64,000 nucleotides of DNA, taken from Balanoglossus misakiensis. Taxonomy: Eukaryota > Animalia > Hemichordata. This document shows positions 3,676 to 64,000 of this stretch, one piece after another (position 1 is the first letter of the stretch; each line of letters opens with the position of its first letter). The DNA is taken from the NCBI GenBank assembly GCA_040954595.2, contig CM082585.2, positions 1,426,318-1,490,317 of the forward strand, given 5' to 3'. The translations under genes were made by a program, and so were the position numbers. The notes beneath the pieces are model-generated. The model saw only the letters and a list, made by a program, of their open reading frames with translations, ran no database searches and had not been told where the DNA came from.

Positions 3676-6070
3676 AACAGTCATGATTTTGTTCAAAGAG
3701 TACTACTGCTGCCAGGACATAACCCAAATATTTTGATAATTTTGGCAATGACCCTTGATCTACTTGGATATGTCTCTTGTTAAAAAGCACAACAGTCATG
3801 ATTTTGTTCACATGAGTTTTATTGCTGCCAGGACATAACCCAAATATTTTGATAATCTTGGTAATGACCCTTGATCCCTTGGATATGTCTCTTGTTAAAA
3901 AGCACAACAGTCATGATTTTGTTCACATGAGTTTTATTGTTGCCAGGACATAACCCAAATATTTTGATAATTTTGGCCATGACCCTTGATCTACTTGGAT
4001 ATGTCTCTTGTTAAAAAGCACAACAGTCATGATTTTGTTCACATGAGTTTTGTCGCTGCCAGGACATAACCCAAATATTTTGATAACTTTGGCAATGACC
4101 CTTGATCTACTTGGATATGTCTCTTGTTAAAAAGCACAACAGTCATGATTTTGTTCACATGAGTTTTATTGCTGCCAGGACATAACCCAAATATTTTGAT
4201 AATCTTGGCAATGACCCTTGATCTACTTGGATATGTCTCTTGTTAAAAAGCACAACAGTCATGATTTTGTTCACATGAGTTTTATTGCTGCCAGGACATT
4301 ACCCAAATATTTTGATAATTTTGGCAATGACCCTTGATCTACTTGGATATGTCTCTTGTTAAAAGGCACAACAGTCATGATTTTGTTCACATGAGTTTTA
4401 TTGCTGCCAGGACATAATCCAAATATTTTGATAATCTTGGTAATGACCCTTGATCTACTTGGATATGTCTCTTGTTAAAAAGCACAACAGTCATGATTTT
4501 GTTCACATGAGTACTATTGCTGCCTGGATATAACCCAAATATTTTGATAATTTTGGCAATGACCCTTGATCTACTTGGATATGTCTCTTGTTAAAAGCAC
4601 AACAGTCATGATTTTGTTCACATGAGTTTTATTGCTGCCAGGACATAACCCAAATATTTTGATAATCATGGCAATGACCCTTGATCTACTTGGATATGTC
4701 TCTTGTTAAAAAGCACAACAGTCATGATTTTGTTCACATGAGTTTTATTGCTGCCAGGACATAACCCAAATATTTTGATAATTTTGGCAATGACCCTTGA
4801 TCTACTTGGATATGTCTCTTGTTAAAAGGCACAACAGTCATGATTTTGTTCACATGAGTTTTATTGCTGCCAGGACATAACCCAAATATTTTGATAATCT
4901 TGGTAATGACCCTTGATCTACTTGGATATGTCTCTTGTTAAAAAGCACAACAGTCATGATTTTGTTCACATGAGTACTATTGCTGCCTGGACATAACCCA
5001 AATATTTTGATAATTTTGGCAATGACCCTTGATCTACTTGGATATGTCTCTTGTTAAAAAGCACAACAGTCATGATTTTGTTCACATGAGTACTATTGCT
5101 GCCTGGACATAACCCAAATATTTTGATAATTTTGGCAATGACCCTTGATCTACTTGGATATGCCTCTTGTTAAAAAGCACAACAGTCATGATTTTGTTCA
5201 CATGAGTACTATTGCTGCCTGGACATAACCCAAATATTTTGATAATTTTGGCAATGACCCTTGATCTACTTGGATATGTCTCTTGTTAAAAAGCACAACA
5301 GTCATGATTTTGTTCACATGAGTACTATTGGTGCCTGGACATAACCCAAATATTTTGATAATTTTGGCAATGACCCTTGATCTACTTGGATATGTCTCTT
5401 GTTAAAAAGCACAACAGTCATGATTTTGTTCACATGAGTTTTATTGCTGCCAGGACATAACCCAAATATTTTGATAATTTTGGCAATGACCCTTGATCTA
5501 CTTGGATATGTCTCTTGTTAAAAAGCACAACAGTCATGATTTTGTTCACATGAGTTTTATTGCTGCTAGGACATAACCCATATATTTTGATCATTTTGGC
5601 AATGACCCTTGATCTACTTGGATATGTCTCTTGTTAAAAAGCACAATAGTCATGATTTTGTTCACATGAGTTTTATTGCTGCCAGGACATAACCCAAATA
5701 TTTGGATAATTTTGGCAATGACCCTTGATCTACTTGGATATGTCTCTTGTTAAAAAGCACAACAGTCATGATTTTGTTCATATGAATTTTATTGCTGCCA
5801 GGACATAACCCAAATATTTTGATTATTTCGGCCATGACCCTTGATCTACTTGGATATGTCTCTTGTTAAAAAGCACAACAGTCATGATTTTGTTCACATG
5901 AGTTTTATTGTTGCCAGGACATAACCCAAATATTTTGATAATTTTGGCCATGACCCTTGATCTACTTGGATATGTCTCTTGTTAAAAAGCACAACAGTCA
6001 TGATTTTGTACACATGAGTACTATTGCTGCCAGGACATAACCCAAATATTTTGATAATTTTGGCCATGAT
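3676..6070. repeat. 116-bp tandem array, ~21 copies
   Basis: The unit aacagtcatgattttgttcacatgag...ggacataacccaaatattttgataattttggcaatgacccttgatctacttggatatgtctcttgttaaaaagcac starts at 3676, 3791, 3906, 4022, 4138 and onward. Confidence 0.97.
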
Positions 6071-8930
6071 CTTCTTTCCCATAACTTGCCATGCACAGCA
6101 GATACGGCTTTCAAATTTAGAGGACTGGAACACCTAATGAAGTATTAATTTTTAACACAATCATTATGTACTTATCCTATTTAAAGTTAACCAATTGAGC
6201 TTAGAAGTTTGGTTCTTGTTGGACACTTATCAGTTTGATGTCAAAATTTGTTGGCACAAATTTGCCTGACCTCTGGCTTACTTACCATTTCTCAGCATCC
6301 ATAACAGATACAGCCTTTGCTTTCTGTTGGAACCATGCTAACCACTTTGGTCACTCCAATGCTGCTTATAGTTGGGTCTTCTTCATGGCGGCCATATTGG
6401 ATTTTCTGATAATCTCTAAAAGTGTACATTTTTTTCTAAACTGCAGGGCCAATCAAGTTCTAATTTACTGGCCGTTCCATTTTTTTTTCAATTATATTAA
6501 TAGTGGTCATGTGAATTTGGATTCATTATGGATTTTTTCAAAAACTCATGAAAAATTTCCAAAATCTTTTTTAATCAAGCTTTCAAGTGAATTGTGATTG
6601 GTTAAACCTTATTGAAGTCAAATTGGATTGTCTGAACTCCGATTAAAAACTAAAATTTCCTATTTCAAGGCTACTGAATGATAGCACACCAATCCTTTTT
6701 ATGGATACGAGTCACCATAAGTCCAGAATATGTTAAACAATTTTTATCAACTTTCACATGTCCTTTCATCCATTTTTTCAACACTTAATTATACTATTTT
6801 TTTGCAACTTTCATTCGTCTTTTGATCCAGATCTTTCAGAACTTAATTCTACGTTGATATGCCTCTTGTTAAAAAGCACAACAGTCGTGATTTTGTTCAC
6901 ATGAGTACTACTGCTGCCAGGACATAACCCAAATATTTTGATAATTTTGGCAGTAACTTTTGATCTACATTCCCATAACTTGGCATGTACAGCAGATACA
7001 GCTTTTAAATTTAGAGGCTTGGAACACCTAATGAAGTACATGTATTAACTTTAACACAATAATTATGTATATAAGCTATTTAAAGTTAACTAATAAAGCG
7101 TAGAAGTCTGCTTTTTGTTGGACATTGATCAGTTTGGTATCAAATTTTGTTGGCACATTTTGCATCACCTCTGGCATACTTTACCATTTCTAGGCATCCA
7201 CAACAGATACAGCCTTTGCTTTCTGTTGGAACCATGCTAACCGCTTTGGCCACTCCAATGCTGCTTGTAGCTCTAATTGTCTTCTTCATGGTGGCCATAT
7301 TGGATTTTCTAATAACCTTTAAAAGTTGACATTTTCATAAACTACAGGGCAAATCAAATTCTAGTTTACTGTAGGGTTGAAAGTTTGACAAAAATATCAT
7401 TAGTGGTCATGTGACTTTGGGTGCCTAATTGGATTGTTTAAAAATCTCATTAAAAATTACAGAACATCTTTTTCTAATCAAGTTTTCAAGTGAATTGTGA
7501 TTGGTGTCACCTTATTGGAGCCAAATTGGATTTTTCTGAACACTGATTAAAAACTAAGATTTCCTATTTCTAGCCTACTCATTGAAAGCACACAAATTAA
7601 TTTTATGGATACGAGTCGCCATATGACTAGAATACGTTACATTTTTTGGCAACTTTCACATGTCCTTTGATCCAGTTTTTTCAAAACTTGATTAAACAAT
7701 TTGTTGGCAACTCTCGCATGTCCTTTGACCCAGTAATTCCATAACTTAATTTTATGTGGATATGGCTCTTGATAAAAAGCTCAACAGTCATGATTTTGTT
7801 CATAGAGTACTACTGCTGCCAGGACATAACCCAAATATTTTGATAATTTTGGCAATGACCATTGATCTACTTGGATATGTCTCTTGTTAAAAAGCACAAC
7901 AGTCATGATTTTGTTCACATGAGTTTTATTGCTGCCAGGACATAACCCAAATATTTTGATAATTTTGGCCATGACCCTTGATCTACTTGGATATGTCTCT
8001 TGTTAAAAAGCACAACAGTCATGATTTTGTACACATGAGTACTATTGCTGCCTGGACATAACCCAAATATTTTGATAATTTTGGCCATGATCTACTTAAA
8101 TCCTATTTAAAGTTAACCAATTGAGCTTAGAAGTTTGGTTCTTGTTGGACACTTATCAGTTTGATATCAAAATTTGTTGGCACAAATTTCCGTGACCTCT
8201 GGCTTACCTACCATTCTAAGAATCCATAACAGATACAGAGTTTGCTTTCTGTTGGAACCATGCTAACTGCTTTGGCCCCTGTGATGCTGCATGTTCTTTT
8301 AATTGTCTTCTTCATGGTGGCCATATTGGATTTTCTGATAACCTTTAAAAGTTGACATTTTTTTTCAAAAATTACAAGGCCAATCAAGTTCTAATTTACT
8401 GTACGTTCCAATTTTTTAAAATAATATTGTTAGTGTTCATGTGAATTTGGATTTATTATGGATTTTTGAAAAATCCCATGAAAAATTTCCAAAATCTTTT
8501 TTTAATCACGCTTTCGCGTAAAATGTGATTGGTTAAACCTTATTGAAGCCTAATTGGATTTTCTGAACTCCGATTAAAAACTAAAATTTCCTATTTGTAG
8601 GCTACTGAATGATAGCACACCAAGCCTTTTTATGGATAGAGTCAACATAAGACCAGAATGTTAAAATTTTTTGTCAACTTTCACATGTCCATTGATCCTT
8701 TTTTTAACACTTAATTATACAATTTTTTGCAACTTTCATTTTCCCTTTGATCAAGATCTTTCAGAACTTAATTGTACATTGATATGTCTCTTGTTAAAAA
8801 GCACAACAGTCATGATTTTGTTCACATGAGTACTACTCTGGCAGGACATAACCCAAATATTTTGATAATTTTGGCAATGACCCTTGATCTACATTTCCAA
8901 AACTTGGCATGCACAGCAGATACAGCTTTT

Positions 8931-10734
8931 ATTAGCTCTGCTGTCACTTGTGTCAGCCGAGCTGTAGCAGTAGGTTGATAAATGTCTGTCCGTCGTCTGT
9001 CGTCCGTCATCCGTCGTCCGTCAACTTTTGGTATTTCAATCTTCTTCTATAAAACTACTTGGCATATTTAGCTGAAATTTGGTTAGAATGTGTGTTATGG
9101 TGCCCTTACCTGATTTTGTTAATTTGGATTTGATCGGGTCATGAATATGCAAATTAGATCTAAAAATAAAATTTTTGGTAAAAAAATCTTCTTCTCCCTA
9201 ACTACATGTACGATGGAGCTGAAATTTGGTAGGAATGTGTGTTATGGTGTCCCTACCTGATTTTTAGCTCTGCTGTCACTTGTGTCAGCCGAGCTGTAGC
9301 AGTAGGTTGATAAGTGTCCGTCCGTCGTCCGTCGTCTGTCGTCAGTCGTCTGTCGTCCGTCAACTTTTTGTATTTCAATCTTCTTCTTTAAAACAACTGG
9401 GCATATTTAGCTGAAATTTGGTTGGAATGTGTGTTATGGTGCCTTTAACTGATTTTGTTAATTTGGATTTGATGGGGTCATGAATATGCAAATTAGATCT
9501 AAAAATAGAACTTTTGGTAAAAATCTTCTTCTCCACAACTACATGTGCAATGGACCTGAAATTTGGCAGGAATGTGTGTTATGGTGCCCCTACCTGATTT
9601 TGTAAATTTGGATTTGATGGGGTCATAAATATGCAAATTAGATCTAAAAATAGAATTTTGGTAAAAAATCTTCTTCTCCATAACTACATGTACAATGGAG
9701 CTGAAATTTGGTAGGAATGTGTGTTATGGTGCCCCTACCTGATTTTGTAAATTTGGATTTGATGGGGTCATAAATATGCAAATTAGATCTAAAAATATAA
9801 TTTTTGGTCAAACATTTTCTTCTCCCTAACTACATGTACGATGGAGCTGAAATATGGTAGGAATGTGTGTTATGATGCCCGTACTTGATTTTATAAATTT
9901 GGATATGATCGGGTCATGAATATGTAAATTAGATCTAAAAATATAATTTTTGGTAAAAAATCTTCTTCTCCCTAACTATTTGTACGATGGAGCTGAAATT
10001 TAGTAGGAATGTGTGTTATAGTGTCCCTACCTGATTTTGTTAATTTGGATTTGATTGGGTCATAAATATGCAAATTAGATCTAAAAATAGAATTTTTGGT
10101 CAAAAATCTTCTTCTCCCTAACTACATGTACGATGGCGCTGAAATTTAGTAGGAATGTGTGTTATGGTGCCCCTACCTGATTTTGCTAATTTGGATATGA
10201 TGGGGTCATAAATATGCAAATTAGATCTAAAAATAGAATTGTTGGTCAAAAATCTTCTTCTCCCTAACTACATGTACGATGGCGCTGAAATTTAGTAGGA
10301 ATGTGTGTTATGGTGCCCCTACCTGATTTTGCTAATTTGGATATGATGGGGTCATAAATATGCAAATTAGATCTAAAAATATAATTTTTGGTAAAAAAAT
10401 CTTCTCCCTAAATACATGTACGATGGAGTTGAAATTTGGTAGAATGTGTGTTATGGTGCCCCTACCTGATTTTGTTTTATTGGAATTTTGATGGGGTCAT
10501 GAATATGCAAATTAGAACATTGGTACTTCCTTTTGATGTTGTTCTTTAGAATTCAATTCTTTCTTTCTTTAGTGCAATGAATCAAGCTGAATTTGGATAA
10601 ATACTTGTGATGTCTATGTTTGGTTTTGTTCAATAGAATACAATTGTTATGAATTAAAACCTAGGGTATTCATATCATCGCCCAGGTTACACTGTTAAGG
10701 TCAGCAGAGCTCATTTGACCAATAGGTCACTTGT
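8931..10734 (+). mobile_element. HINE/Helentron-type non-autonomous element with an internal ~146-bp tandem array
   Basis: 5' hairpin/sub-TIR, (gtc)n microsatellite and ~8 copies of a 145-146-bp unit (atgcaaattag at 9486, 9631, 9776, 10068, 10214, 10360, 10505; variant atgtaaattag at 9922). 3' sub-TIR tcagcagagct (10701-10711), then hairpin tgacc-aata-ggtca and cttgt. Inserted into the T-run of cagcttttaaattt with no TSD. Confidence 0.75.
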
Positions 10735-13546
10735 AAATTTAGAGGACTGGAACACCTAATGAAGTGCATGTGTTAACTTTAACACACTAATTATGTATAT
10801 GAGCTATTTAAAGTTAACCAATAAAGCGTAGAAGTCTGCTTTTTGTTGGACACTGATCAGTTTGGTATCAAATTTTGTTGGCACATTTTGCCTCACCTCT
10901 GGCGTACTTTACCATTTCTGGGCATCCACAACAGACACAGCCTCTGCTTTCTGTTGGAACCATGCTTAACACCTTGGTCCCTCCAATGCTACTTTTAGTT
11001 GTAATTGTCTTCTTCATGGCGGCCATATTGGATTTTCTAATAAGCTTTAAAGGTTGACATTTTCATAAACTACAGGGCCAATCAAGTTCTAATTTACTGT
11101 GCGGTTGAAAGTTTGATAAAATATCATTAGTGGTCATGTGACTTTTGGTGCCTTATTGGATTTTTTAAAAATCTCATTCAAAAATTACGAAAATCTTTTT
11201 CTAATCAAGTTTTCAAGTGAATTGTGATTGGTTTAACCTTATCAGAGCCAAATTGGATTTTCTGAACTCCGATTAAAAGCTAAAATTCCTTTTTTTATCC
11301 TACTCATTGAAAGCACACAAATTCTTTCTGTGGATACGAGTCACCATATGACTAGAATATGTTACATTTTTTGACAACTTTCATATGTTCTTTGATCCAG
11401 TTTTTTTTCAGTATTTGATTAAACAATTTGTTGGTGACTCTCGCATGTCCTTTGATCCAGTAATTCCATAACTTAATTTTATGTGGATATGGCTCTTGAT
11501 AAAAAGCTCAACAGTCATGATTTTGTTCAAAGAGTACTACTGCTGCCAGGACATAACCCAAATATTTTGATAATTTTGGCAATGACCTTTGATGTACTTT
11601 CCCATAACCTGGCCTGCACAACAGATACAGCCTTCAGATTTTTAGGCCTTAAACACCTAATAAAGTATTAAACTTTAACACAAAAGTTGTGTACATAAGC
11701 TTTTTCTAGTTAACCAATTGAGAATAAAAGTCTGTTTTTTTGTTGAACACTGATCAGTTTGATGTCAAAATTTGTTGCCACAAATTTCCGTGACCTCTGG
11801 CTTACCTACCATTTCTAAGCATCCACAACAGATACAGAGTTTGCTTTCTGTTGGAACCATGCTAACTGCTTTGGTCCCTGTAATGCTGCATGTTCCTTTA
11901 ATTGTCTTCTTCAGGGTGGCCATATTGGATTTTCTGATAACCTTTAAAAGATGACAGTTCTTTTCCAAAACTACAGGGACAATCAAGTTCGAATATACTG
12001 TGCAGTTCAAAGTTTGACTGTAATATTGCTAGTAGTCATGTGACTTAGAATTCCTTATTAGATTTTTGAAAAATATCATTAAAACACTTTTTCTAATCAA
12101 GTTTTCAAGTGAATTGTGATTGGTTAAACCTTATTGGAGCCAAATTGGATTTTCTGAACAACGATTTAAAACTAAGATTTCCTATTTATGGCCTACTCAT
12201 TGATAGCACAAACATTATTTATATGTATATGACTCACTATATGACCAGAATATGTTACCATTTTTGGCATATTGCACATGTCCTTTAATCCAGTTTTTCC
12301 AACACTTAATAATACAAATTTTTAGGCAACTTTCATTTGTCTTTTGATCCAGATCTTTCAGAACTTAATTAAAGTTTATTGAAGCCAAATTGGATTTTAT
12401 GAATTCTGATTAAAAACTTTGATTGCACACCAATTCTTTTTATAGATACGAGTCACCATATGACCAGAATACGTTGCATTTTTTGGCAACTTTCGCATGT
12501 ACTTTGATCCATTTTTTTTTCAGAACTTAATTATTCGTGGATATGCCTCTTGTTGAAAAGCAAAACAGTGATGATTTATTTTTCACACGAATAGTACTGC
12601 TGCCAGGACATAACCCAAATTTTTTGATAATATTGGCATTGAACTTTGTCCTAAGTTTGGCACCTGTATTCTTTTCTGAATATCTTATGGCGACTAGACT
12701 AATAGCACTAGAGGTTTGGTTTTTGATGTATATGGACAAGTATGGGACTTAGCTTTTTTTGTTACATTTGGAATCCACTGGACCAATGTTGAGCTTATTA
12801 AATATGTGAATATCTAATGCTGAGCTTACCCATATTGTTACAGGTTGAATTTTTTATGAACATGCTCTACTATTGGACTTAATTTTTTTGCTGAATTTCT
12901 TGACCAATGATAACCTTATAAATATGTGCTTACGTAATTGTAGACTAGATAATGAAGCTTTGAGTCTGGGTTTTCTTGAACATTCACCAGTATGCGATCA
13001 CATTTTTTTCTGACATTTTTGTTAGCTTTGGTTACCTTAAACCTATTTTCCCTGCCTTGGCATGCACAGCAGATAACGCCTTCAAATTTTGAGGGCTGGA
13101 ACACCTAATTACCAGGTTAACCAATAGAGCCAGAAGTCTTGTTTTTCATTTTACACTGATAATTTTGGAAGAAACATTTGTTGACAATTTTGGGTGAGCT
13201 CTTGGTGACCTTTGATCTGCTTTCCTATATACATAGCAGATACAGCATTGGCACTCTCTGGTATCCATAGGAACTGCTTTGACCTAGCCAATGTTTGTTG
13301 CACTTTATTTTTTTTTCATTAATTGACGATATGTACCCCTTGACCCGCAGTATGTTGGGTTGGGCTGGCTTGCCAAATTAATCCTATTATTATCATTGAT
13401 TTCATGCATTTAATTCTTTCATTCTTTTTTTTTTGTAGGTCCCACCGGTACTCTTCTCCTTCTCTCTCTCTTTCTTTCTTTCTTTCTTTTTTTCTCTTCT
13501 TTTCTCTTTTTTTTCTTTTTTTCCCTGTAGGCCCCAATGGTAACAC

Positions 13547-41988: not shown

Positions 41989-42071
41989 TTAGTTGTCTAA
42001 ATTAACTATCGAAGAACATACGCAAGCAACCTTTACGAGATTTGGTGACTTTTTAGCCGTGATTTGAGTGC

Positions 42072-43703
42072 ATGAAAATGTCTACACCCGTAACGCTGTC
42101 CGGACTGCCAGGAGTGGCGGGATTCGACTGTGAAGGCGAACCGGAGGCTCTTCAGCAAAGGTGGGAGCGTTGGCTTCAGGAATTTGAACTGTTCGTAGCA
42201 GCTTCTGGTGTTTCAAATAATGCGCAGAAGCGTGCCTTACTTTTGCACATGGCTGGAGCGGGCATCAGAGACATTGTTAGCACTAAATCTGAAGATGAAA
42301 CTGGTGACGTCACAAACTGCGCAACGTTGATAGCATGTTTGGATAAACACTTTCAACTGCAGAAAAACGTTCCTATGGCGAGACAGAAGTTTTACAGCGC
42401 AACTCCCACGTCCGGGGAGACGGTCGACAGCTACGTAATACGTCTCAAGAACCTACTGAAAGACTGTGATTTTCCCGAGACGGAAAAAGACAACCAGATA
42501 AGAGATCGTGTCTTGCTCTACATCAGCGACAAGGTGCTAAAAAGCAAGCTGTATCGTGAAAAGAATTTGGACACTACCAAACTACTACAAATCATACGGT
42601 CGTATCACGACAAAGATGCACTAGTTTTGGTGTCTGGTACTCAAGCTGTGAGTGCAAATGCAGTCAATATTGGCGGTAAACGTACGCGCGCCAAAAACAA
42701 AATGGCGGACTTAGCCTGTTTCCGTTGTGGAAGGAAAGGTCACATGCAACGTGAATGTCGCGCCAGTACAAGTGGTAGTTCTCGCAATGCCGAACAAAAA
42801 TCCGACCGGTGTTTCCGATGTCAAAAACCGGGACACAGAGCTGCAGACTGTCGTGCTAAGTGGGAAGACTGTCCGTCTAAAGACAGTGAAAATGGCAACA
42901 GTCGAGGCAGTGGTGGTAACCGCAGCGCACGTGGACGTGGCCGTACGCGTGGTGATGGTCGCGGTACACACAAGGTAGCTCAGACGACTACTGATGCAAA
43001 CGCCGATGGTGGCCATGCAGACGTCGAGACTGACGAGGAGAAAGCGTACTATGCTTTCAATGCTGCTTTCCGTGCTTCCAGTGGGAAGGACCTCACTGAT
43101 ACAGGTATTCAGATCGAGAATCAACACGTGCCGGTTATCATCGACAGTGGTGCTACATGTAATCTCATTGGTGAAAGACAATTTCGCAGACTTGCTGAAA
43201 AGCGTGGTGTGAAAGTTCGAAATTGTAACAATAAAGTGTTTACCTATGGTTCTAGTAAACCTTTAGATATATTGGGTAAATGTGCCTTACATGTTGAAGC
43301 GCCTACTAAAAAGAAATGTATTGCTGATTTTATAGTGATCAAGGCTGATCAACCGATTTTGTTGAGTCGGAGTACTTCTGAGAATTTAAATATGTTGAGA
43401 GTTGGAAATGTGAATCTGTACACGATAAATTCAATATCTGCTGATAATTCTTCGCCAATTCTTGCAGAATTGCGGAGGAAATATCCTGAGGTATTTAATG
43501 GGTTGGGTAAGTTAAAGGGCTACAAGCTCCATTTGCATATTGATGAGAGTGTCAAACCCATAGCCCAGTACCGGCGAATTCCTTTCAACCGCCGTGCTAA
43601 AGTTGTTGAAAAAACTCAACGACCTTCAAAAGCTGGGAGTAATAGAGAAGGTTTCGGGTCCGACCTCTTGGGTCAACCCCCTTGTAACAGTACAAAAGCC
43701 TGA
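42072..43703 (+). CDS. gag: Gag (two CCHC zinc knuckles) plus aspartic protease
   Basis: CFRCGRKGHMQREC and CFRCQKPGHRAADC knuckles, protease IIDSGATCNLI. Homology moves to the next frame at the A6 run ~43609-43614. Confidence 0.92.
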   Translation: MKMSTPVTLSGLPGVAGFDCEGEPEALQQRWERWLQEFELFVAASGVSNNAQKRALLLHMAGAGIRDIVSTKSEDETGDVTNCATLIACLDKHFQLQKNVPMARQKFYSATPTSGETVDSYVIRLKNLLKDCDFPETEKDNQIRDRVLLYISDKVLKSKLYREKNLDTTKLLQIIRSYHDKDALVLVSGTQAVSANAVNIGGKRTRAKNKMADLACFRCGRKGHMQRECRASTSGSSRNAEQKSDRCFRCQKPGHRAADCRAKWEDCPSKDSENGNSRGSGGNRSARGRGRTRGDGRGTHKVAQTTTDANADGGHADVETDEEKAYYAFNAAFRASSGKDLTDTGIQIENQHVPVIIDSGATCNLIGERQFRRLAEKRGVKVRNCNNKVFTYGSSKPLDILGKCALHVEAPTKKKCIADFIVIKADQPILLSRSTSENLNMLRVGNVNLYTINSISADNSSPILAELRRKYPEVFNGLGKLKGYKLHLHIDESVKPIAQYRRIPFNRRAKVVEKTQRPSKAGSNREGFGSDLLGQPPCNSTKA

Positions 43704-46191
43704 TGGGGATATCAGACTATGTCTGGACATGAGAAAAGCAAATCAAGCCATTGTTAGGGAAAGACACCCTGTTCCCACCATGGATGAAACGCTAGAGGAA
43801 ATTTCAGGGGCCAAGGTATTTTGCAAGCTTGATATGAATATGGCTTTCCATCAAATTGAGCTCGATGAAAAGAGCAGGGATATTACAACCTTTTCAGGGC
43901 CCAACTCTTTGTATCGCTACAAGCGTTTAGTTTTTGGTGTGAACATGGCGACTGAAAAGTTTCAAAATCTAATTAGCCAGGTTTTGAAGGGCTGTGAGGG
44001 TGCCCACAACATGCATGATGATATTAGAGTAGTAGCTGAAAATTATGAGCAGCTGCATGCCAGAGTTGGGAAAGTGATCAAGCGTTTTAGTGAGCATGGT
44101 TTAACGCTGAACTTTACAAAATGTAAGCTAGGAGACAGTATGATATTCATGGGTCACTTGATGACGGCCCAGGGTATGAAACTCACTGATGAGAAGGTCA
44201 AAGCTATTGTAAAAGCTCGAACGCCAACTGACAAATCAGAATTGAGAAGTTTCTTTGGGCTGGCTCAATTTTGCTCAAAATATGTCGATAAATTTGCAAC
44301 AGTGACAAGCCCACTGTGGGATTTGACTCGCAAAGATGCAAAGTGGAAATGGCTTCCCAAGCATGAGAAAGTATTCAATCTCATCAAACATAAATTGACC
44401 ACAAGTCCATTCATGGCTTATTTCAAGCAGGGTGCTAAAACTCGAGTCACTTCTGATGCATCGCCCGTTGGTGTTGGAGCAATCCTTGAACAAATGCAAA
44501 GTAATGGTTCATATCAACCAGTGTACTATGTTAGCAGAAAGCTTACACATGTTGAGTCGAGGTACTCTCAGTTTGAGCGAGAGGCGCTTGGAGTTAAATG
44601 GGCATGTGAGAAACTTCAGCAGTTTCTGCTAGGCAGTCATTTTGAGGTCAGAACTGACCATAAGCCTTTATTGAAAGTATTCAGCCCTAACTCCAGGCCC
44701 CCTTCAGCTAGAATTGAGAGATGGCTGTTATATATGCAACAATTTGATTATCATATCACCCATATCAAGGGAAAGAATAATTATGCGGACATGTTGAGTA
44801 GATTGCCCGTGGACGAACCATCTGACAACTATTGTAGAGAGACTGAAGATTTTGCATGTAGTGTTGTTTTAGAGGCTATGCCATCTGCTATCACCCCACG
44901 TGATATTGAGAGAGAATCTGCAAAAGACCAGAGCTTGCAATTGGTTGAAAAGTGTATTACCTCTGCAAATTGGTCAAAATTGAAGTCTTCACCCTATTGG
45001 CATGTGAAAGACGAATTATGGTTGTATGGCAGATTGATCATGCGTGGTAACAGATTGGTTGTTCCTCAAGTTTTGCAAAGAAAAATCTTGAAAATTGCAC
45101 ACCAGGGTCATCAGGGAATTGTGAGGACAAAGGCTCGTTTACGTGACAGAGTTTGGTGGCCAGGAATGGACAGGGATGTGGAAAAACTGATACGATCCTG
45201 TCATCCATGTCAATTGGTCAGTGCCAGGCCAAACCCAGAGCCATTATTACCCACACAGTTACCTGAAGGACCATGGTTCGATTTAGCAGTTGATCTTTTG
45301 GATGTATGTGATGGTGAGAAATTACTAGTGGTAACTGATTTATACTCTAGATGGCCTGAAGTAGTTTTGTTAAAGAAAACAGATGCTGCCCATGTCATAA
45401 AAGCCATGGAAGCTATGTTTCTTACACATGGGTTGCCTTACTGTGTCAAATCAGACAATGGTCCACCTTTTACCTCAGCCGAGTTTGAAGGTTTCCTTGA
45501 TTACTTAGGTATTGATCATGAATATTCCATTCCATACTGGCCTCAGAGCAATGGAAGTGTTGAGAGGCTGAATGAAATAATTTTGAAGTCTGTACGAATT
45601 GCTAAATTGCAAAAGAAAAGTTGGTACAAAGATTTGACACATTTTCTATTTGAATATAGAAATACACCCCATACTGTGACAGGCATATCTCCTGCTATGG
45701 CTCTGATGGGAAGAGAGTTTAGGGACAAAATTCCTAGACTGAGAATTCCATCCCAAACAATCAATGAGTCTGATTGGCAAATCAAAATGAGAGAAAGAAA
45801 CAACAGAATGAAAATGAAACAAAAGTTCTATGCCGACAACAGGAGACATGCCACTTCCTCAGATATCAGGGAAGGTGATACTGTTTTGCTCCAGCAAGCA
45901 TTTAGGCAAAACAAACTCACTCCCAATTTCGAGACAGAACCATACAAAGTCATCCAGAAAGATGGAGGTGCGTTAGTATTGGAAAACTCCAAAGGTGTAA
46001 AAAGAAGGTCCACTGGACATGTAAAGAAATATGTTGAGGAATATCCAGAATTTTCCTTCCAGGGCACTGAATGGAACTCCAAACATTTGACATATGAACA
46101 ACCTCAAAGGGTTCAAAATGGTGTTCCATCCTGTAACCCCCATATCCATGATTTGTCTACACATAACAACCTGGATAACTTGCCAGTATAA
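43594..46191 (+). CDS. pol: Pol: reverse transcriptase, RNase H, integrase
   Basis: RT (LCLDMR, KLDMNMAFHQ, MHDD), RNase H (SDASPVG, EREAL, TDHKPL), integrase (H..H..CHPC, VDL, SDNGPPF, NGSVER). The frame continues past the TAA at 46189 to RRSTRIKSKPPWHKDY and stops at 46413. Confidence 0.95.
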   Translation: MLKLLKKLNDLQKLGVIEKVSGPTSWVNPLVTVQKPDGDIRLCLDMRKANQAIVRERHPVPTMDETLEEISGAKVFCKLDMNMAFHQIELDEKSRDITTFSGPNSLYRYKRLVFGVNMATEKFQNLISQVLKGCEGAHNMHDDIRVVAENYEQLHARVGKVIKRFSEHGLTLNFTKCKLGDSMIFMGHLMTAQGMKLTDEKVKAIVKARTPTDKSELRSFFGLAQFCSKYVDKFATVTSPLWDLTRKDAKWKWLPKHEKVFNLIKHKLTTSPFMAYFKQGAKTRVTSDASPVGVGAILEQMQSNGSYQPVYYVSRKLTHVESRYSQFEREALGVKWACEKLQQFLLGSHFEVRTDHKPLLKVFSPNSRPPSARIERWLLYMQQFDYHITHIKGKNNYADMLSRLPVDEPSDNYCRETEDFACSVVLEAMPSAITPRDIERESAKDQSLQLVEKCITSANWSKLKSSPYWHVKDELWLYGRLIMRGNRLVVPQVLQRKILKIAHQGHQGIVRTKARLRDRVWWPGMDRDVEKLIRSCHPCQLVSARPNPEPLLPTQLPEGPWFDLAVDLLDVCDGEKLLVVTDLYSRWPEVVLLKKTDAAHVIKAMEAMFLTHGLPYCVKSDNGPPFTSAEFEGFLDYLGIDHEYSIPYWPQSNGSVERLNEIILKSVRIAKLQKKSWYKDLTHFLFEYRNTPHTVTGISPAMALMGREFRDKIPRLRIPSQTINESDWQIKMRERNNRMKMKQKFYADNRRHATSSDIREGDTVLLQQAFRQNKLTPNFETEPYKVIQKDGGALVLENSKGVKRRSTGHVKKYVEEYPEFSFQGTEWNSKHLTYEQPQRVQNGVPSCNPHIHDLSTHNNLDNLPV

Positions 46192-54240: not shown

Positions 54241-57226
54241 TATTAGGGCCCAAGCGCATACCAGCGCTTGGGCCCTATTGGTTTCGTTGGGGTTTTTACG
54301 GGCCCAAGCCAAGCCAGGCTTGGGCCCGTATTGGTTTCGTTGGAATTTTACTTTCTTTCTTTCTTTCTTTATTCTTGTGTCAATTCTTTGACCCACGAGA
54401 TCTCAGACACCGCTGCAGGTACACTTCTGAAACTTGCTACAGTGGTCAAGGTCAATGAGTAGTCGTGCATTGAACCCTTGAATTTTTAATTAGTCACGTG
54501 ACCTGGCGGCCATCTTGGATTTTCTGAAAAAATGCAAATCTCAGATCTCAGAAACTACAAGTCAGATCGACTTCAAATTTGGCATGCTGGTAGACTACCT
54601 TCTGCCCATCATTTTTGTAATTGGAAATTATGCTGACAAAGTTGCAGTTTTTTGCTACAATTTTTTTTCTGAAATCTGGCTTAAATTTCAAAAATCTTCT
54701 TCTCCAGAACCGGTGATAACCGAGACACAGGGTTTGGTGTATGTGGTCACCTAACTGATGTTTATCAAGTTTGCGAAGATCATTGTGATTGGTCGAAGAT
54801 TATGGCGGCCATATTGGATTTTCGAAAAACCCTAGTAAAATTTCAAAAATCTTCTTCTCAAGAACCGGCGATAACCGAGTCACAAGATTTGGTGTGTGTG
54901 GTCATTAAAAAGATGTCTATCAAGTTTGCTAAGAAGAATGTGATTGGTCGAAGATTATGGCGGCCATATTGGATTTTGTGAAAAACCATTAAAAAGTAAA
55001 AATTCCCTTTCTGGCCTAAAAATTGATAGCACATAAATTCTTTTTAAGGATATGAATCATCATATGACAAGAATAAGCTATAAATATTTTGGTAATTTTG
55101 ACAATGACCTTTGACCTACTTTTGACGCATCCTTTTTCTGCATATCTAATTCCAGGCTAACCAATAGGGCTATAAGTTTGGTTTTTGATGTATGTGGATT
55201 TGTATGTGATCAAAAAATTTTGATACTTTTCATGACCACTTTGACATCTGCTGACCTCATTAAATATGCACATACCTAATTACAGATGAACCAATAGACC
55301 TAGAGATTTTGTTTTTGTTATACATGGACCACTATGGGGTCAAAATATTTTGCCCAAATGTTGGGTGACCTCGGGTGACCTTTGACCTACTTTTCCATAT
55401 CTTGACATCCACAGCAGATACAGCCTTGGCGTTTGGAGGTATGGGGCCATAATGAAAAGCCAAAGTTTTTGGTCACCTGTGACACCTGCTTAACTCATTA
55501 TTTATGTGCATACCTAATTACGGGCTAACCAAAAGGGCTAGAGATCTGGTTTTTGTTGAACATGGACCACTATGGGTCAAAATTTTCTGCCCAAATTGTG
55601 GGTGACCTCTGGGTGACCTTTGACCTACTTAACACTATATCAACACCAAACATAGATATAAACTTGATATTTCATGGGATAAAACACAGCATTATGTTTC
55701 TACTCATTAATTATGTGCATATCTAATAATCAGATCAGATAATAGAGCTTGGGCCCGGACAATGCTGCTTGCAGCTTTAATTCTGTCTTTCCTTCTTTCT
55801 TTCTTCTTTCTTTATTCTTCTGTCAATTCTTTGTCGCTCTAGATCTCAGACACCACTGCAGGTACAGTTCTCAAACTTGCTACAGTGGTCAAGGTCAATG
55901 AGGAGTCGTGCATTGAACCCATGAATTTTTAATTAGTCACATGACCTGGCGGCCATCTTGGATTTTCTGAAAAAATGCAAATCTCAGATCTCAGAAACTA
56001 CAAGTCAGATCGACTTCAAATTTGGCGTGCAGGTAGACTACCTTCTGTCAAACATTTTTGTAATTGGAAATTATGCTGTCAATGTTGCAGTTTTTTTGCT
56101 ACAATTTTTTTTCTGAAATCTGGCTTAAATTTCAAAAATCTTCTTCTCCAGAACCGGTGATAACCGAGACACGGGGTTTGGGGTATGTGGTCACCTAACT
56201 GATGTCTATCAAGTTTGCGAAGATCATTGTGATTGGTCGAAGATTATGGCGGCCATATTGGATTTTCGAAAAACCCTAGTAAAATGTCAAAAATCTTCTT
56301 CTCGAGAACCGGGGATAACCGAGCCACAAGATTTTGTGTGTGTGGTCATTCAACAGATGTCTATCAAGTTTGCGAAGAGGAATGTGATTGGTCGAAGATT
56401 ATGGCGGCCATATTGGATTTTGTGAAAAACGATTAAAAAGTAAAAATTCCCTTTCTAGCCTAAAAATTGATAGCACAGAAATTCTTTTTATGGATATGAA
56501 TCATCATATGACAAGAATAAGCTATAAATATTTTGGTAATTTTGGCAATGACCTTTGACCTACTTTTGACGAATCATTTTTCTGCATATCTAATTCCAGG
56601 CTAACCAATAGGGCTATAAGTTTGTTTTATGATGTATGTGGATTTGTATGTGATCAAAAAATTTTGCTACTTTTCATGACCCCTTTGACCTCTGGTGACC
56701 TCATTAAATATGCGCTTACCTAATTAATGATAAACCAATAGACCTAGAGGTTTTGTTTTTGTTATACATGGACCAGTATGGGGTCAAAATATTTTGCCCA
56801 AATGTTGGGTGACCTCGGGTGACCTTTGACCTACTTTTGCATATCTCGACATCCACAGCAGATACAGCCTTGGTGTTTGGAGGTATGGGGCCATAATGAA
56901 AAGCCAAAGTTTTGGGTCACCTGTGACACCTGCTTAACTCATTATTTATGTGCATACCTAATTCCGGGCTAACCAAAAGGGCTAGAGGTCTGGTTTTTGT
57001 TGGACATGGACGACTATGGGTCAAAATTTTCTGCCAAAATTATGGGTGACCTCTGGGTGACCTTTGACCTACTTAACACTATATCAACACCAAACATAGA
57101 TATAACCTTGATATTTCATGGAATAAAACACAGCATTATGTTTCTACTCATTAATTATGTGCATATCTAATAATCAGATCAGATAATAGAGCTTGGGCCC
57201 GGACAATGCTGCTTGCAGCTTTAATT
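54241..57226 (+). mobile_element. Two nested HINE/Helentron-type elements of one family (~1.44-kb bodies)
   Basis: Two 5' hairpins (54245-54276, 54298-54329), (cttt)n microsatellites, and two 3' ends gcttgggccc...gctgcttgcagc-tttaatt (55747-55782, 57191-57226). Confidence 0.75.
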
Positions 57227-58846
57227 TTTATATTGTTAATATCGTTCGTGATGTTGACTGGCCGACAATCTTTGTCACACCAGTATTTGCAGGTAGATTA
57301 AAACATTGCCTATTCCAGCAATAATCACAACAGTCTTACTTTTTCTATCTTTGTAAGCGTTAATCTTTATTGACCTCGCTTGTTGTTTTGTGTTTTTGTG
57401 TTGTTTTTGTTTTTGTTTTGTTTTTTTAGTAGTTTCATAATTTTATTTGTATTTTTAAAATGTTTTCCTGTTTTTTGTTTACTTTTTTATTTTTTTTACT
57501 ATTTGTTGATTGTAATGCTGTATGGGTCTCGACTGTCGGTCCCAACTTGTCATATAATTAGGTAGTACTGGAGTCAGTGGAAACCCAGGTGCCCGCATAA
57601 TTTCAGGTGTAGTGACACCGTGTATTGTCATGTTAATGAATAGGGCTTCGTTAGCTAAGTTTCGTGTAGTAAGAGAGCACACTTCAATTTAGGTCTTGAA
57701 GGGAGCAACAAGTCGGGTCTCCCTGCTCAGTGAGTAGAAATACTAGGGGAAATATTGCACCATACCTTGCTGTGTCCATGTAATGCTGTAGCGCGCATTA
57801 GTGCTCTCAGGACCACTGTTTCTGCAATTCGAGTGGAAGTAAATTCAGTACTTCTAGAAAGCAGAATTGTGCTTATTCAGTGCAAACCGGTGTGGTCGGG
57901 CGATTGGCGTGGCTGGCATGGTCGTATGTGGTGTGGCTGGAAATTGCTCCAAGCAGAGTTCTGTGGAACCATCCTATAGACCCGGTATTGCTGAGCATGA
58001 AGTGTGGTGAAGAATTCTCGTGTAAGTAATGTATTTGTTTATTTATTTACTATAACTTAAATTTATATTTTATGGATATTTATGTCAAATTCGACAATTT
58101 GTAAGTAATAGGACGGTCATAGTTAAAGCATAATTTTCCATGATATCACATGTAATCATGACGCTTTAACTAGTCCAAATTTCTGATAATTATTATTGAG
58201 AAACGTCAGTATTCATTTGTGAACAGTTGCTAAGGTGGACATTTCAGTCAATGTTTGTTGATTTTTCATTCAGCCATTTAACCCAAGACTTGCATCTAAC
58301 AAGTCAGTCTTCAGTGTGTTTACTTGACTACTGGAGGACTACAAGTGGTAGAAAACATGGTGTATCACAGATTGTATGTGTAATGTGGATCGTCGCTACA
58401 TCGTTCATCTATACAGGACTCCATCCCATATTGTGGTTGAATCATGATTGTTTACTATGAATGTTATATACAGCTAAGTGACACTTACCATTGTTTAGAC
58501 AATATGCAATAGACAATAAACTATAGTGATATTGTGAATATATTCATTTATGTAATATATTAAGTAACCCATTGTATTGTATGACCAATTGTATCAGCAT
58601 ACTTGTACCTGCTAAATTGGTTAGGACAGAGACATTTGATATTGTGCATATTGTGCACAAAAATTATATTCCTAGTATTATCTTTATATTATTTAATTGA
58701 TTTAAATTAAATCAACTGTATTATTGTATCCGCACTGGTTTGTGTAGTTTCTCCCCATACCTTATCCACGGATGTTTACTCCTTGGCACTGAGAGCTGCT
58801 CAATATTTATCCTGGAATCAGAGGGGTGCCCTCCACCTCTGACATT

Positions 58847-58863
58847 TGGGGGCTCGTCCGGGA
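58847..58863 (+). promoter_or_regulatory. Primer-binding site for tRNA-Pro
   Basis: TGGGGGCTCGTCCGGGA lies 2 nt after a probable LTR end (...ctctgaCA at 58844) and matches the canonical tRNA-Pro PBS. Confidence 0.85.
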
Positions 58864-59139
58864 GTTTTATCGTTTTGTTGTGCATTTGTTTGTATACTAT
58901 CATAAATTGTTGCCATATAGTGGAGACCATGGTTTTGATAGGTAGAGATTCTGCAAATTGTGAAGACGGTGCTGGGTCTGTAGGCTGGTACTGTTACTGT
59001 ATGTGCGCTTGTGGTTTCCTGCTATATAATATGGGCCGTGTTGGTTTGCGTCGTGCGTTTGGCTGTGTTGACTTGTGCTGAATGCCCTGTACTGCTAGGG
59101 GTTGTCAAACTGGGGGTTGTAAATCGCGATACAGCAAAG

Positions 59140-60953
59140 CATATATGCAGAAAGAATATCTAAGATAGGGAGAAAATTTGGGTTGGAAGGGACTGCTTTA
59201 AAAGATTATGTTAGAGAGGAACAAATTAGACAGAGGGATCTTAGGGCTACTGAGAGAGAGGAGCAGAGAGAAGATAATAGGCGGCGCGAGGAACATGAGA
59301 GAGAGATACTGAAAATGCAAATTCACTTACAAGAATTAAAATTGAAAGGGGAAAATACAGAACAGCAGGTTACTGAAAATAATTTGGCCAAAGCGCGTGC
59401 TCCGAGACTACAGGGTTTTCGTGAGGATGTTGATGATATGGATGCGTACCTTCAACGTTTTCAGCGCTACGCCACTGCTCAGAAGTGGGAAAAAGATGAC
59501 TGGGGGTGAATCTCAGTGCATATTGTTACAAGGTAAGGATGTATCCACATACAACCAAATGCCTGCAGCGTCTGCAAATAATTATGATGAATTGAAACCA
59601 GAGTTATTGAGGGCTTACCAGTTAAGTGAGGAGAGTTTTCATGACAAGTTCCGTTCGTGTATGCCACATTATGATGAAAGTGCTCAAAAGTTTATGGACC
59701 GTATTGGTGACTATTTGGGCAGATGGGTAGAACTGGCTGGTACTCCAAAGACGTACAATGGGCTTACAGATCTGTTACTTCGAGAGCAGTTTATTGGAGT
59801 ATGTTCCAGAGACATGGCAATGTTCATTAGAGAGCGACGGCCAGAGAATGTCCAAGAGATGGTATCTACTGCCTCAAAATACTTAGATGCCCGAGGGTGG
59901 TGGAAACTGCCAAGTAATGCCAAGAATAATCCAAGGAGCCAGCCGACAGCAAATACCAAGCCTGCTGTATATCCAAATCAAGTAAATAAGTTTAATAACA
60001 AAACCAATGGTTCCCATGTTTTTAAAGGTACGTGCTTCGTATGTGGTAAAGGTGGTCATATGGCCAAAGATTGTAGAAGTAAGCCAAAGATGCATAAGAC
60101 GGCGGTATTGTTAACTGAAGAAGATAGAAACTATCCACCTAAACAAGAATGTACACATTGGGGCAACCGTCAACAGCCCAGGGGACTAGACACTGGTTAT
60201 GCATGTATGGTGGTAGCAATGGAAATAGATAAAACAGATGCAACACTGAATAAGGAGTTCGTGTTACCATGTGGTCATAAGCTCCCAGTGATGAGTGCTG
60301 CTTGTAGTGCCCATGGAGTGAAGAAGATGCCGGTAATGAAGGGATTGCTCGATGGTAAGCTGGTTAGCGTTTTGCGTGATAGTGGGTGTAGTAGCGTGGT
60401 AGTTCGAAGAAGTCTGGTGTCAAGTAATCAGCTGACTGGTGAGTACAGGACGTGTGTTCTGATAGATGGGACTATTAGAAGAGTACCTGTAGCCTCTATA
60501 AAAGTTGATACCCCTTACTTTGTTGGTGATGTTACTGCACTGTGCATGATGAACCATGTGTATGATTTAATACTGGGCAACATTGATGGTGTATCTGACC
60601 CTTCGAATCCTGATACTACATGGCAGGAACCATTGCCGACATGTAGACTGTGTACAACTGTTGGACAGGTACCAGGTTTAGCAAATGCTGTGGAGACCAG
60701 AGCCCAGAAGATAGCCAACCAAAAACCAATCAGAGAGCTTAAAGTACCTAAAGCTGTTGGTGAAGTGGTGATGCCAGGGAAGCTTCAACAAGCTCAAGAA
60801 GAAGACTCCACTCTTGACAAACTACGTGAGAAGGCAATTTTGGGTGACGAGAAAGTGACTAGGAATGGAGGTAGGTTGAAGTTCATCATGAAAGATGGGA
60901 TCCTGTACAGAGAGTTCAATTCGCCAATGGTCCAATTTGGTGAAAAGCTGTTA
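59140..60953 (+). pseudogene. gag: Gmr1-like Gypsy gag (SCAN-like capsid, CCHC) and protease, frameshifted and interrupted
   Basis: DDMDAYLQRFQRYATAQKW, then a frameshift at ~59500, LLLREQF, CFVCGKGGHMAKDC, LRDSGCS, AVETRAQ and the pre-integrase segment QEEDSTL..KDGILYR. Homology stops at ~60953. Confidence 0.85.
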
Positions 60954-61039
60954 CACACTGCGGGAAATACTAGAGCTATGTTGGGCAGTATTCAGCGAAG
61001 CGCGAGCTCCCATGTTCACCATAGCAATGCATTGCCAAG

Positions 61040-61690
61040 ATGGCGGCGCCCGTGTTGATCGATGCCGAGAAAGTTATAAAACGCAAATTGCGAGAGGCAA
61101 AATCTGTGCTTAAACGTAAAAAATGCGTGTCGGACAATCTGTATATACACCCACTCTTTGATGAACTTGAGGATGTGACAACAAGGGCCATATTTCGAAA
61201 CGACAAGCTGTCAAAGGACAAGATTCGTTGGCGTGACGTCGCCGTATTTCCCATGTTTCAGCGTGATATGACCTACTGGCAGAAGACCTTCTACGCTCGG
61301 CTGTCAACATCCCCGTCGTTAAGGTCACCATGGCAAAGCAGCTTTACACGACAAATGCCGAGGGAAGTATTTGATGTTTTTCATCAGTTTGCTACTCGGA
61401 CCGGTTTTGGTATCGACGAGAAGACCTCCAGGGCTATCATAACCTTGACCTTCACAAGTTCCTTGAAGCTATTGTATGTGATACGGAAAGGTTATTGCTA
61501 CGAGGGCGCTATCGGTCAGCATACAGAGAATATCCTAGAGAAGAAAGTCCGTGGAAAGAGGGTAGCTGTTATATTCACACCTGAGAAGCCCTGTGTTGTG
61601 AAATATTTTATCAACAGGGAGACTGTTGCTGTTAGATTCAGCTTTGGTGCCTGGAACAAACATGGAATTCCATTACATCCAGAGAACTGA
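61040..61690 (+). CDS. Orphan basic 216-aa protein, putative transposon accessory protein
   Basis: Uninterrupted ORF with a strong start context (caagATGGCGGCG), GC-richer than the AT-rich sequence downstream, and AATAAA at 61819-61824. No domain recognised. Confidence 0.7.
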   Translation: MAAPVLIDAEKVIKRKLREAKSVLKRKKCVSDNLYIHPLFDELEDVTTRAIFRNDKLSKDKIRWRDVAVFPMFQRDMTYWQKTFYARLSTSPSLRSPWQSSFTRQMPREVFDVFHQFATRTGFGIDEKTSRAIITLTFTSSLKLLYVIRKGYCYEGAIGQHTENILEKKVRGKRVAVIFTPEKPCVVKYFINRETVAVRFSFGAWNKHGIPLHPEN

Positions 61691-62542
61691 ACCCTATTGA
61701 TTTTTCACACTGATTCAACCCATCTGAGGAACATTTTTTTCCTGATCTGTGGCACATGTTGTTCAGTGTAGATGTATCAGTCTGTCAAGACAGTCCTCTC
61801 ACAATTGACATATATTCAAATAAAAAAAGGAAAATTAGAAGACTCAAAAATTCATCACTTGTCTTTATTTATCTACATTCAATACAAATGAACAGATAAT
61901 GTTTACAAAATTTCCTAAACTGTAAAATTCTTTTTTTCCATCATTATTGTAACATAGATTTTTCATTAGTTTCAGAAAAAAATGTATGTTACCTACAATC
62001 AACATTGATAAGTCAATCAAAACTGCTCATCTAACAGTTAACCAGGATTTCTGGTCTAAATTTAATTAATATTTACAATTAATTCCATGACAAAATTTAT
62101 AAATATCAAGAATTTGATGAGACTTAATTCTTTATTTTTTCACAAATTCATTAAAATTTCGTGCAGGTGCAGAATAAACAACTCCTCAAGAAAAATGTAA
62201 AACTTTTCTATCAAGCTTATGTATGTCATACATTTTAATTTTGCAAAGCACTGCAATCACTATACGATTAAGGGTTTATTCACAATACTTAATAGTGGTA
62301 AGATAAGTTTCAATTTCCCTGTCCCCATACATGCACACATATACAAAATCCCATAAGAAACATATCATCTCCAGTTCAAAAAGTGTGAATTCATGTGATT
62401 TGTGATCTCCATTTTTATTAAATGCAGCTCTCAACTACAGATGAGTCTTTATAATTCTGTAATGTAATTAATACTATAGTTATCCTTTAATTCTAAAGTA
62501 GCACACAGTGACACAATCCACTGTTTCAAATTCAATCATTGT

Positions 62543-64000
62543 TCACAGCATAAGTTTCTTGAGTTTATTTGATATTTTACCAGTGACAGCTGCTTTTTTT
62601 ATGTCATCCATAATTGGGTCAACACATATTTCACAGGCAGTCATTGTTTCATTTTTTTAAATTGCCACACATACAGTAGCCTGCATTCTCATAATATCGA
62701 CTGGGAATGTATTTTTCTTTTTCTTTAAGCTCAAATTGACCTACATTTGCATTTCTATAGTTGTCAGCTTTTGGACTGTTGTTCCTCAGCCAAAAAAGCA
62801 TCACATATTCGTGTCGAAATATGAGGGCCCACCTATTTTGAGGTGTAGAATTTTCACTGAATTCTAGCAGGCGTAGATGCTTTGCCTCTCTGCCTTCCAT
62901 TGTGTTTAGGCCTAATCCCAGACTGAATTGCTTATAGATACTAGTGGTGTGTTTTGGGACTACATAACCAATGTGCCACACAGTATTATTGACATTCAGA
63001 AACAGGGAATGTAGATTAAAGTACCACCGACACTTATGCCTAAGTACAAGCAAATCTCCCTCATTTATGTTGAATCGTGAGAATAACAAAGTGATATCTC
63101 TAAGCAAGATACCAGTATATGTGTAGAGAGCTAATTGAGCCCGACGCTTTGGTCTGTCTGTATCGCTTCTCAATGCTAATACCAATCCTATGAAATGCCA
63201 AGCAAGTTTGCGAGACTCCTCACCAGTGAAGCGATAAACCACATTAATGTTGGCATTTGACTTGACACTATTTTCATTGAAGTATTTTACAATCTTATTA
63301 TACAACTTTCCAGCTTTTACTTGATATTTTAGGGCAGACAGGAATTTGTACAGATATGACTCGTTAGGTAGATTCTCAATTTTAACTCCATTTTCACGAC
63401 CCTTTTCCGAAGTGTGGGCAACTGCGTCAATCAGTAATCGTTGGAAGTAGTATTGCCATGCATTGTTCTTTAAATGCAATGGCTCAGCCTTGGCACAATC
63501 AATAAATCTACCCAACGGTGGTACAAATTCCTGTCTTGACCTCAGACTGGCTATAAATTGTGTGATTTTGGGTCGCACTGTTTTGGGCTTTCCAGTTTTA
63601 ATTTTCTTAGTTGACTTCAACTTTTCAACAGCTTCTGCATCTTTAATTCTTTTCTGATATTTCCATTCATCCCACTTCTGACCTGGGCCAATTTCTGCTC
63701 CAATACAATCAATATCATTTTTGGAACGTTAGCAAATGAGCTGAAATACTTTGCTGCATTGCTTAGTTCTCCAGACACACTGGCCAATCCCTTCTGATCA
63801 AAGGGTAAAAGTGACACCTGAAAAGTTACATCAAGACTGCCAACTTTATATTTACGTTTCTCAATACACTCAAGGTCTTTTGACAATGCAATTGCAAATT
63901 CAATCATTATGGGGTCATCCTCTTTTATGTTTGCCCCTAATAGGAGAAAATTGTGGTCTGGGCTAGCAACACGGTGGGTCACATTCAAGAAACTAACTAG
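62543..64000 (-). pseudogene. Divergent Transib/RAG1-like DDE transposase (N-terminus outside the window; two 1-nt frameshifts)
   Basis: Ordered motifs LVSFLNV...PFDQKGL..SG, EPLHLKNN, RFTGEESRKL, TVWHIGYVVPKH, NTMEGREAKH parallel the RAG1/Transib motifs DxK, DxLH, GN.ARK, HxxxxH and SE..E. Frameshifts at ~63720 and in the A-run at ~62652 join the two listed ORFs and extend the C-terminus to a stop at 62543-62545. Confidence 0.65.

Follow-up and report, generated by a model that had tools for sequence, protein, structure and literature searches.

One long-standing question about the origin of V(D)J recombination is how a RAG1-like transposase became dependent on another protein. Plant CACTA elements, for their part, use a second, DNA-binding protein, TnpA. 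In the RAG-like transposons (ProtoRAG/RAGL-A, RAGL-B and TransibSU) and in RAG1-RAG2, the transposase gene faces that of a RAG2-like protein, and Transib (HzTransib; the Nozomi/Hayabusa group) has a single gene. RAG1L and Transib proteins average 26% identity (PMC9435367), and RAG and HzTransib both cut DNA through a nick and a hairpin, according to the available part of PMC10629977. The locus described here lies at the right edge of the window, a term that denotes the whole 64,000-nucleotide stretch of Balanoglossus misakiensis DNA analysed. The reading that I favour, at a probability of roughly 0.7, is that it holds a copy of a cut-and-paste transposon of an apparently unnamed lineage, made of a gene for a DDE transposase of predicted RAG1/Transib fold and a facing, co-inherited helper gene whose product likely binds DNA. 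The lineage is called unnamed by comparison with Pfam, PDB sequences and the open literature.

The copy in the window

The copy is a real DNA transposon, now broken, whose insertion site lies in a decayed element of Gypsy type. Its features are as follows (P0002 is a homologue 75% identical to the transposase).

59123..60953, + strand: host element, a decayed Gypsy-type gag-protease region (SCAN, zinc knuckle zf-CCHC, aspartyl protease), truncated by the insertion
60951..60953, + strand: TTA, predicted from relatives to be one half of a 3-bp target-site duplication
60954..60962, + strand: partner-side terminus CACACTGCG, family pattern CACGCYGGG, opening a short terminal inverted repeat whose mate is placed beyond 64000
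61040..61690, + strand: intact partner gene for a 216-aa protein, which has helices at its N-terminus and an alpha/beta domain that closes with a YG.WN..G.P.H-type motif; the start context is AAGATGGCG
61691..62542, no strand: AT-rich spacer (71%) that separates the facing stop codons; hexamers resembling poly(A) signals occur on each strand
62543..62651, - strand: transposase piece 3, C-terminal CxxC and stop, past the second frameshift, by comparison with P0002
62652..63724, - strand: transposase piece 2, which contains the LH and FxG motifs, the conserved His (in VVPKH) and the catalytic Glu (in MEGREAKH)
63725..64000, - strand: transposase piece 1, which corresponds to residues 195 to about 286 of P0002, contains the second catalytic Asp (PFDQK) and is still open where the window ends

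That an insertion beginning CACACTG interrupts a Gypsy ORF had been read from the sequence alone, and this stands: the Gypsy-type frame runs to 60953 and CACACTG follows from 60954, the insertion starting CACACTGCGGG. Since in run X2 a 70-nt contig joins a flank different from the window's to the sequence from precisely 60954 onward, this base is the end of the element, and the fit of the window terminus to the family pattern lends the boundary independent support. The family consensus was derived from 41 ends (C40 A41 C38 G38 C39 Y41 G36 G33 G41), and the window end departs from it much as the ends of L003 and L056 do. Only CAC is therefore common to the element and the RSS heptamer; the likeness to that heptamer, which the sequence-only reading had seen in CACACTG, is incidental, and this interpretation of the end was dropped. 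No second copy of the end was found within the 64-kb window and no Rfam match in 57000-64000, and an X1 contig reaches about 2.07 kb past 64000. A domesticated host gene pair, another candidate, is ruled out by the termini and by the many different flanks.

The host, in which a SCAN-bearing gag is followed by a protease running toward the integrase, may be a Gmr1-like element. The likely end of its 5' LTR lies at 58836-58862, with loose ends at 58844, and the stretch that follows looks like a primer-binding site. Contig depth over 58500-64000 is roughly 11-15x that of a paralogous contig, for Gypsy and insert alike; the composite may lie in a multi-copy segment, depth being no copy number. Tandem repeat units with GGCGGCCATATTGGATTT-type motifs occupy 54500-57200, upstream of the Gypsy element, and 42063-46191 carries a further, unrelated pair of gag and pol genes, which are LTR-retrotransposon-like and whose frames are long and open.

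The partner gene was correctly recognized from the start as an intact plus-strand ORF: its ATG is 86 bp inside the element end, and an ATG-ORF of its length arose in none of 200 shuffles of the 3-kb stretch. Most relatives start the gene about 60-130 bp inside the end, and AAnATGGCG stands at the start both in the window and, among the 12 relatives checked, in 11, a sequence that resembles the TISU/YY1 element of short-leader genes as presented in the available part of PMC2518114. The partner would be made from a short transcript starting just inside the end. The poly(A)-signal-like hexamers of the spacer may be due to chance. Runs X1 and X2 also contain an 83% identical paralogue of the partner gene start (window 61035-61094), and a second subfamily is therefore present in the same organism.

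On the minus strand, the motifs PFDQK (63805-63791), EPLHLKNN (63485-63462), RFTGEE (63233-63216), VVPKH (62963-62949) and MEGREAKH (62900-62877) follow one another in this order; the window thus holds the second D and the E of the triad, and the first D is placed past 64000. The convergent ORF with ordered motifs reported earlier is upheld as to the order of the motifs, not as a single ORF, for the gene lies in three frames, with breaks near 63724 and in a T run at 62652-62658, and stops at 62543. Assembly error was considered as the cause of the frameshifts and is disfavoured, in spite of a single X2 contig with one additional base at 63724: X1 contigs span both sites without gaps, so the frameshifts are probably real in this sample. 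The window copy is unable to make its own transposase, yet its partner gene is still intact. The transposase shares 75-79% identity with a protein of Ptychodera flava; the nearest named protein, at 75%, is from this species and is its sister in the tree (support 1.0).

Relatives, linkage and repeated traces

A search with piece 2 gave 76 long homologues among 3102 candidates; those from named organisms (Ptychodera, Acropora, Porites, Desmophyllum, Actinia, Lineus and Owenia) are labelled uncharacterized, hypothetical or unnamed. With near-duplicates removed, 65 of the 76 went into a profile, which matched 3338 clusters at E<=0.001 and, at the stricter E<=1e-30, 721; fragments are numerous among them. 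The hosts include corals, an anemone, a nemertean, an annelid and a lancelet. No transposase relatives were found in viral contigs. The catalytic residues are nearly invariant (D181 in 65/65 members, D262 in 64/65, E566 in 65/65). The C2C zinc motif is found in none of the 65 members and in none of 46 more distant ones, Y/F-F/P-S-x-F taking its place; in the window copy YFSSF of piece 1 stands where RAG1-type proteins have C2C. A C-terminal CxC..CxxC motif is conserved (60-63 of 65). At the position of H(3-4)H, a motif of the CMCT clade, aligned by eye to the RAG1 register, the second His is present in 63/65 members and a His five positions earlier in only 24/65. The N-terminus, where Chapaev/Chapaev3 has its Chapa zinc finger, has no Cys/His-rich region in eight sequences inspected by reading. 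Four sequences (P0270, P0282, P0293 and P0311, from Branchiostoma and unnamed sources) form a distant subfamily with C-terminal SAP domains and, in two of the four, C2H2-like domains.

The convergent layout was followed in metagenomes, where the best 80 of 212 related stretches, falling into 49 families at 88% identity, were analysed. A convergent downstream partner was present in 34 of these 80 loci. Where the downstream sequence reached at least 1400 bp it was present in 33 of 37 loci, and where it reached at least 2000 bp, in 21 of 22; four of the 37 (L001, L018, L037 and L040) have none. The two-gene arrangement proposed for the window thus recurs in other DNA. In four close pairs (dS 0.16-0.41), dN/dS was 0.33-0.36 for the partner and 0.11-0.23 for the transposase; the other partner pairs were eight distant ones, saturated or nearly so, and one almost identical. 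Judged by these ratios, purifying selection acts on both genes. The partner evolves faster, with a median identity of 21% versus 39% for the transposase. Trees of the two proteins from 17 family representatives have 8 of 14 splits in common; when the labels were shuffled 5000 times, the number never exceeded 3. The shared splits together with the linkage indicate that the two genes are inherited as a unit.

The relatives also bear on the target site. Two-ended elements measure 4.2-8.5 kb and their terminal inverted repeats match over about 10-35 bp. The clearest case is L081, an 8542-bp element inserted in a 294-bp tandem array, whose neighbouring units represent the empty site: exactly ATA is doubled. 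L081 was counted apart from the other two-ended metagenome loci with readable flanks, of which there were 11 after L068, whose flank is too short, had been dropped. Three of the 11 show a 3-bp duplication and none a duplication of 4-8 bp, with modest statistics (binomial p 0.009, permutation p 0.07); among the eight that show no 3-bp duplication, several are chimeric contigs, and in L073/L075, visibly chimeric, the left flank is common and the right flank is not. As relatives duplicate 3 bp, TTA is predicted to follow the far end of the window copy, in place of the 5-bp TGTTA duplication that the sequence-only reading had foreseen. This far end is expected 1.4-3.8 kb beyond 64000, a range taken from 12 relatives. 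L081 is a complete element (4241-12782) in a MAG labelled Anaerolineae and is the sole match among prokaryotic genomes. It was rejected as a bacterial copy, being an AT-rich element in a tandem array with 74% DNA identity to metagenome locus L018, and is probably animal host DNA within a bacterial MAG.

Pieces of the partner gene lie inverted in the arm upstream of the transposase in six of the nine families for which both ends are available:

L002: 569-746, inverted, transposase-side arm
L012: 3705-3938, inverted, transposase-side arm
L048: 3128-3234, inverted, transposase-side arm
L068: 282-472, inverted, transposase-side arm
L075: 806-903 and 1727-1813, inverted, transposase-side arm
L081: 4777-5172, inverted, transposase-side arm

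These scraps measure 31-339 bp and are 84-96% identical to the partner gene of their own element; in 9/9 the orientation is inverted and the source is the coding region of the partner, a region that makes up 11-23% of the DNA compared. In L048 an internal copy of the far terminus lies beside the scrap. The five scraps that were tested match their own family only and are broken by stops or frameshifts, so that they must have arisen repeatedly and be non-coding. Repair at the paired ends may have left them as scars, or they may supply regulatory RNA. One possibility is that the partner stands outside the reaction altogether, shielding the element from silencing or limiting its activity, with the scraps tuning it through double-stranded or antisense RNA. 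The recurrence, uniform orientation and common origin of the scraps, and their confinement to their own family, would fit such a role, and fungal transposons of the same clan carry anti-silencing cargo (TET/JBP), as reported in the available part of PMC12730594. Three of the nine families, however, lack scraps, and since the partner gene adjoins the opposite end, scraps could form by template switching during repair, and have no function. I regard a role outside the reaction as rather improbable, and prefer to see in the partner a helper of transposition.

Predicted folds and the proposed role of the partner

The fold of the transposase was approached through P0002, whose model has a pLDDT of 91.6. 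Foldseek matched this model to RAG1 (E 8e-12) and HzTransib (E 2e-7). VIA aligned it with RAG1 over 467 residues (Z 22.8, rmsd 3.8, 10% identity), and gave Z values of 20.0 for ProtoRAG, 19.8 for HzTransib, 12.4 for the P element and 6.7 for Hermes. The best structural match of the P0002 model is thus RAG1, in keeping with the fold that the sequence-only reading had assigned, and the DDE transposase is predicted to have the RAG1/Transib fold. The first rank of RAG1 may be due only to the matches among solved structures including no CACTA, Chapaev, Mirage or Plavaka transposase: among the predicted models of the Atlas, where TM was 0.63 for RAG1, 0.62 for a Transposase_21 cluster, 0.59 for Plavaka and 0.58 for DUF1280, the lead of RAG1 is smaller than among solved structures. 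Close kinship with ProtoRAG and Transib, which had also been suggested, is not supported: identity to RAG1, ProtoRAG and Transib is 9-13% even in structural alignments, C2C is missing, and among PDB sequences the 65-member profile matched neither RAG1 nor Transib chains at E<=10.

The partner is harder to place. In its model (pLDDT 78.9), residues 9-87 hold three long helices; the model also has seven strands, with an alpha/beta domain. Conserved positions are mostly Arg/Lys and aromatic, with no Cys pattern and no acidic catalytic cluster, and the pI spans 5.5 to 10.0 across the family, so the partner is not uniformly basic. It is unrelated to the transposase. A single-sequence homology search gave no match, and comparison with Pfam, PDB sequences and PHROG none of weight; a Pfam family nevertheless exists for it, since 22/22 database homologues carry the precomputed identifier PF26709. 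Its predicted fold has no clear match in PDB (Foldseek best E 0.025; VIA best Z 6.6, for the N-terminal helices only, and 5.2 for the C-terminal domain) or in BFVD (best E 0.004), and Atlas features gave no usable match for the homologue P0131. The absence of a clear match among these models does not show that the fold is new. That the partner is not RAG2, as first proposed, is confirmed by size and topology, on which the judgement was made, and not by missing matches: it has 216 aa, with helices and seven strands, against a six-bladed kelch core of about 350 aa.

If the transposase works as its fold suggests, a dimer would pair both ends and cut adjacent to CAC, the probable chemistry being the nicking and hairpin formation of RAG1 and Transib; insertion would follow with a 3-base stagger at AT-rich sites. 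By its conservation, and by analogy with the Myb/SANT protein of Nuwa elements or the TnpA of CACTA, the partner would be a non-catalytic helper that binds end DNA or the transposase and builds the complex. An alternative is that it is a stoichiometric subunit of the transposase, a stand-in for RAG2, in which case a RAG1-fold enzyme would have recruited a second subunit twice independently. The layout is the facing one of RAG1L and RAG2L, as given in the available part of PMC10629977, and partner and transposase are tightly co-inherited, both of which a subunit would explain. On the other side stand the unlikeness to RAG2 in size and predicted secondary structure, the faster evolution of the partner, and the fact that second genes of other transposons can encode plain DNA-binding proteins, such as the Myb/SANT protein of Nuwa (PMC12730594, available part). 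I consider a subunit unlikely, if worth keeping in mind, and retain the helper as the working hypothesis. Of 52 near-full transposases, 29 have no breaks; with so many copies seemingly intact, both the cutting chemistry and the dependence on the partner are open to direct test.

Comparison with known transposons

By its ends and duplication the lineage could pass for something already named. CAC..GTG ends with a 3-bp duplication are those by which elements are filed under EnSpm, according to the available part of PMC12730594, and a curator might file it there; some true Transibs make 3-bp duplications as well (bioRxiv 10.64898/2026.08.26.747230, available part), so that this feature alone would not exclude Transib. 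The lineage could thus be a highly diverged member of a group already in Repbase, be it EnSpm/CACTA, Chapaev3 or a 3-bp offshoot of Transib, and the Atlas TM of 0.62 to the Transposase_21 cluster and the Pfam number that the partner already has are compatible with this. Against it, C(2)C is said to be common to all named lineages of the clan, and none of the 65 and 46 family members has it; the 22 Pfam families matched by the 65 members at E<=0.1 include no transposase family; and the matches from named organisms bear no transposon name. Membership of a named group appears quite unlikely to me, and the best reading places the element as an unnamed two-gene lineage within the CACTA/Transib/RAG1 clan. 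No description of it was found in the openly searchable full-text literature, and no such group is described in the available parts of PMC4411706 and bioRxiv 10.1101/2021.09.26.461848. It is doubtful whether the lineage amounts to a superfamily-level RAG1-fold branch that lost the zinc site, independently recruited an obligatory facing subunit and uses partner scraps as an RNA brake.

With EnSpm/CACTA and the CMCT clade (Mirage, Chapaev, Plavaka, ESTA and Lanisha; PMC12730594, available part) the lineage shares CA..TG ends, a 3-bp duplication and a similar predicted fold (Atlas TM 0.58-0.62). The same part of that paper defines the CMCT clade by CA..TG termini and a duplication of 2-5 bp, both found here, and ascribes to it the C(2)C that is absent here; neither the partner nor the facing layout is described for EnSpm/CACTA or the CMCT clade in the literature consulted. 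For EnSpm/CACTA, where the CAC..GTG ends and 3-bp duplication also agree, the likeness of the transposase is at fold level only (TM 0.62). Including the lineage would require a wider motif definition for the CMCT clade. The lineage would also account for many "uncharacterized" proteins in the genomes of corals and other invertebrates; its 721 clusters at E<=1e-30 include numerous fragments.

Transib resembles the lineage in predicted fold (Z 19.8 for HzTransib), in protein length (about 650-800 aa) and in short CAC inverted ends, and differs in having a single gene and C2C, whereas the lineage has two genes, no C2C and no sequence-level similarity to it; the 9-13% identity found here compares with the 26% average between RAG1L and Transib. 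The RAG-like transposons and RAG1-RAG2 are alike in predicted fold (Z 20-23), DDE triad, CAC and facing genes. They differ in their six-bladed kelch RAG2-like partner, in place of the 216-aa alpha+beta protein, in their 5-bp duplication, in place of 3 bp in the relatives, in an RSS-like heptamer, in place of CACGCYGGG, and in C2C, in place of which the lineage has a different C-terminal Cys motif. The lineage is therefore neither RAGL, as it has no RAG2, a 3-bp duplication and other ends, nor Transib, as it has two genes and no sequence homology, though it likely operates in the manner of a Transib/RAG-type transposon that has a second gene. The family would then be a natural second experiment, in which the same predicted core and the same layout are combined with another partner, another stagger and other ends.
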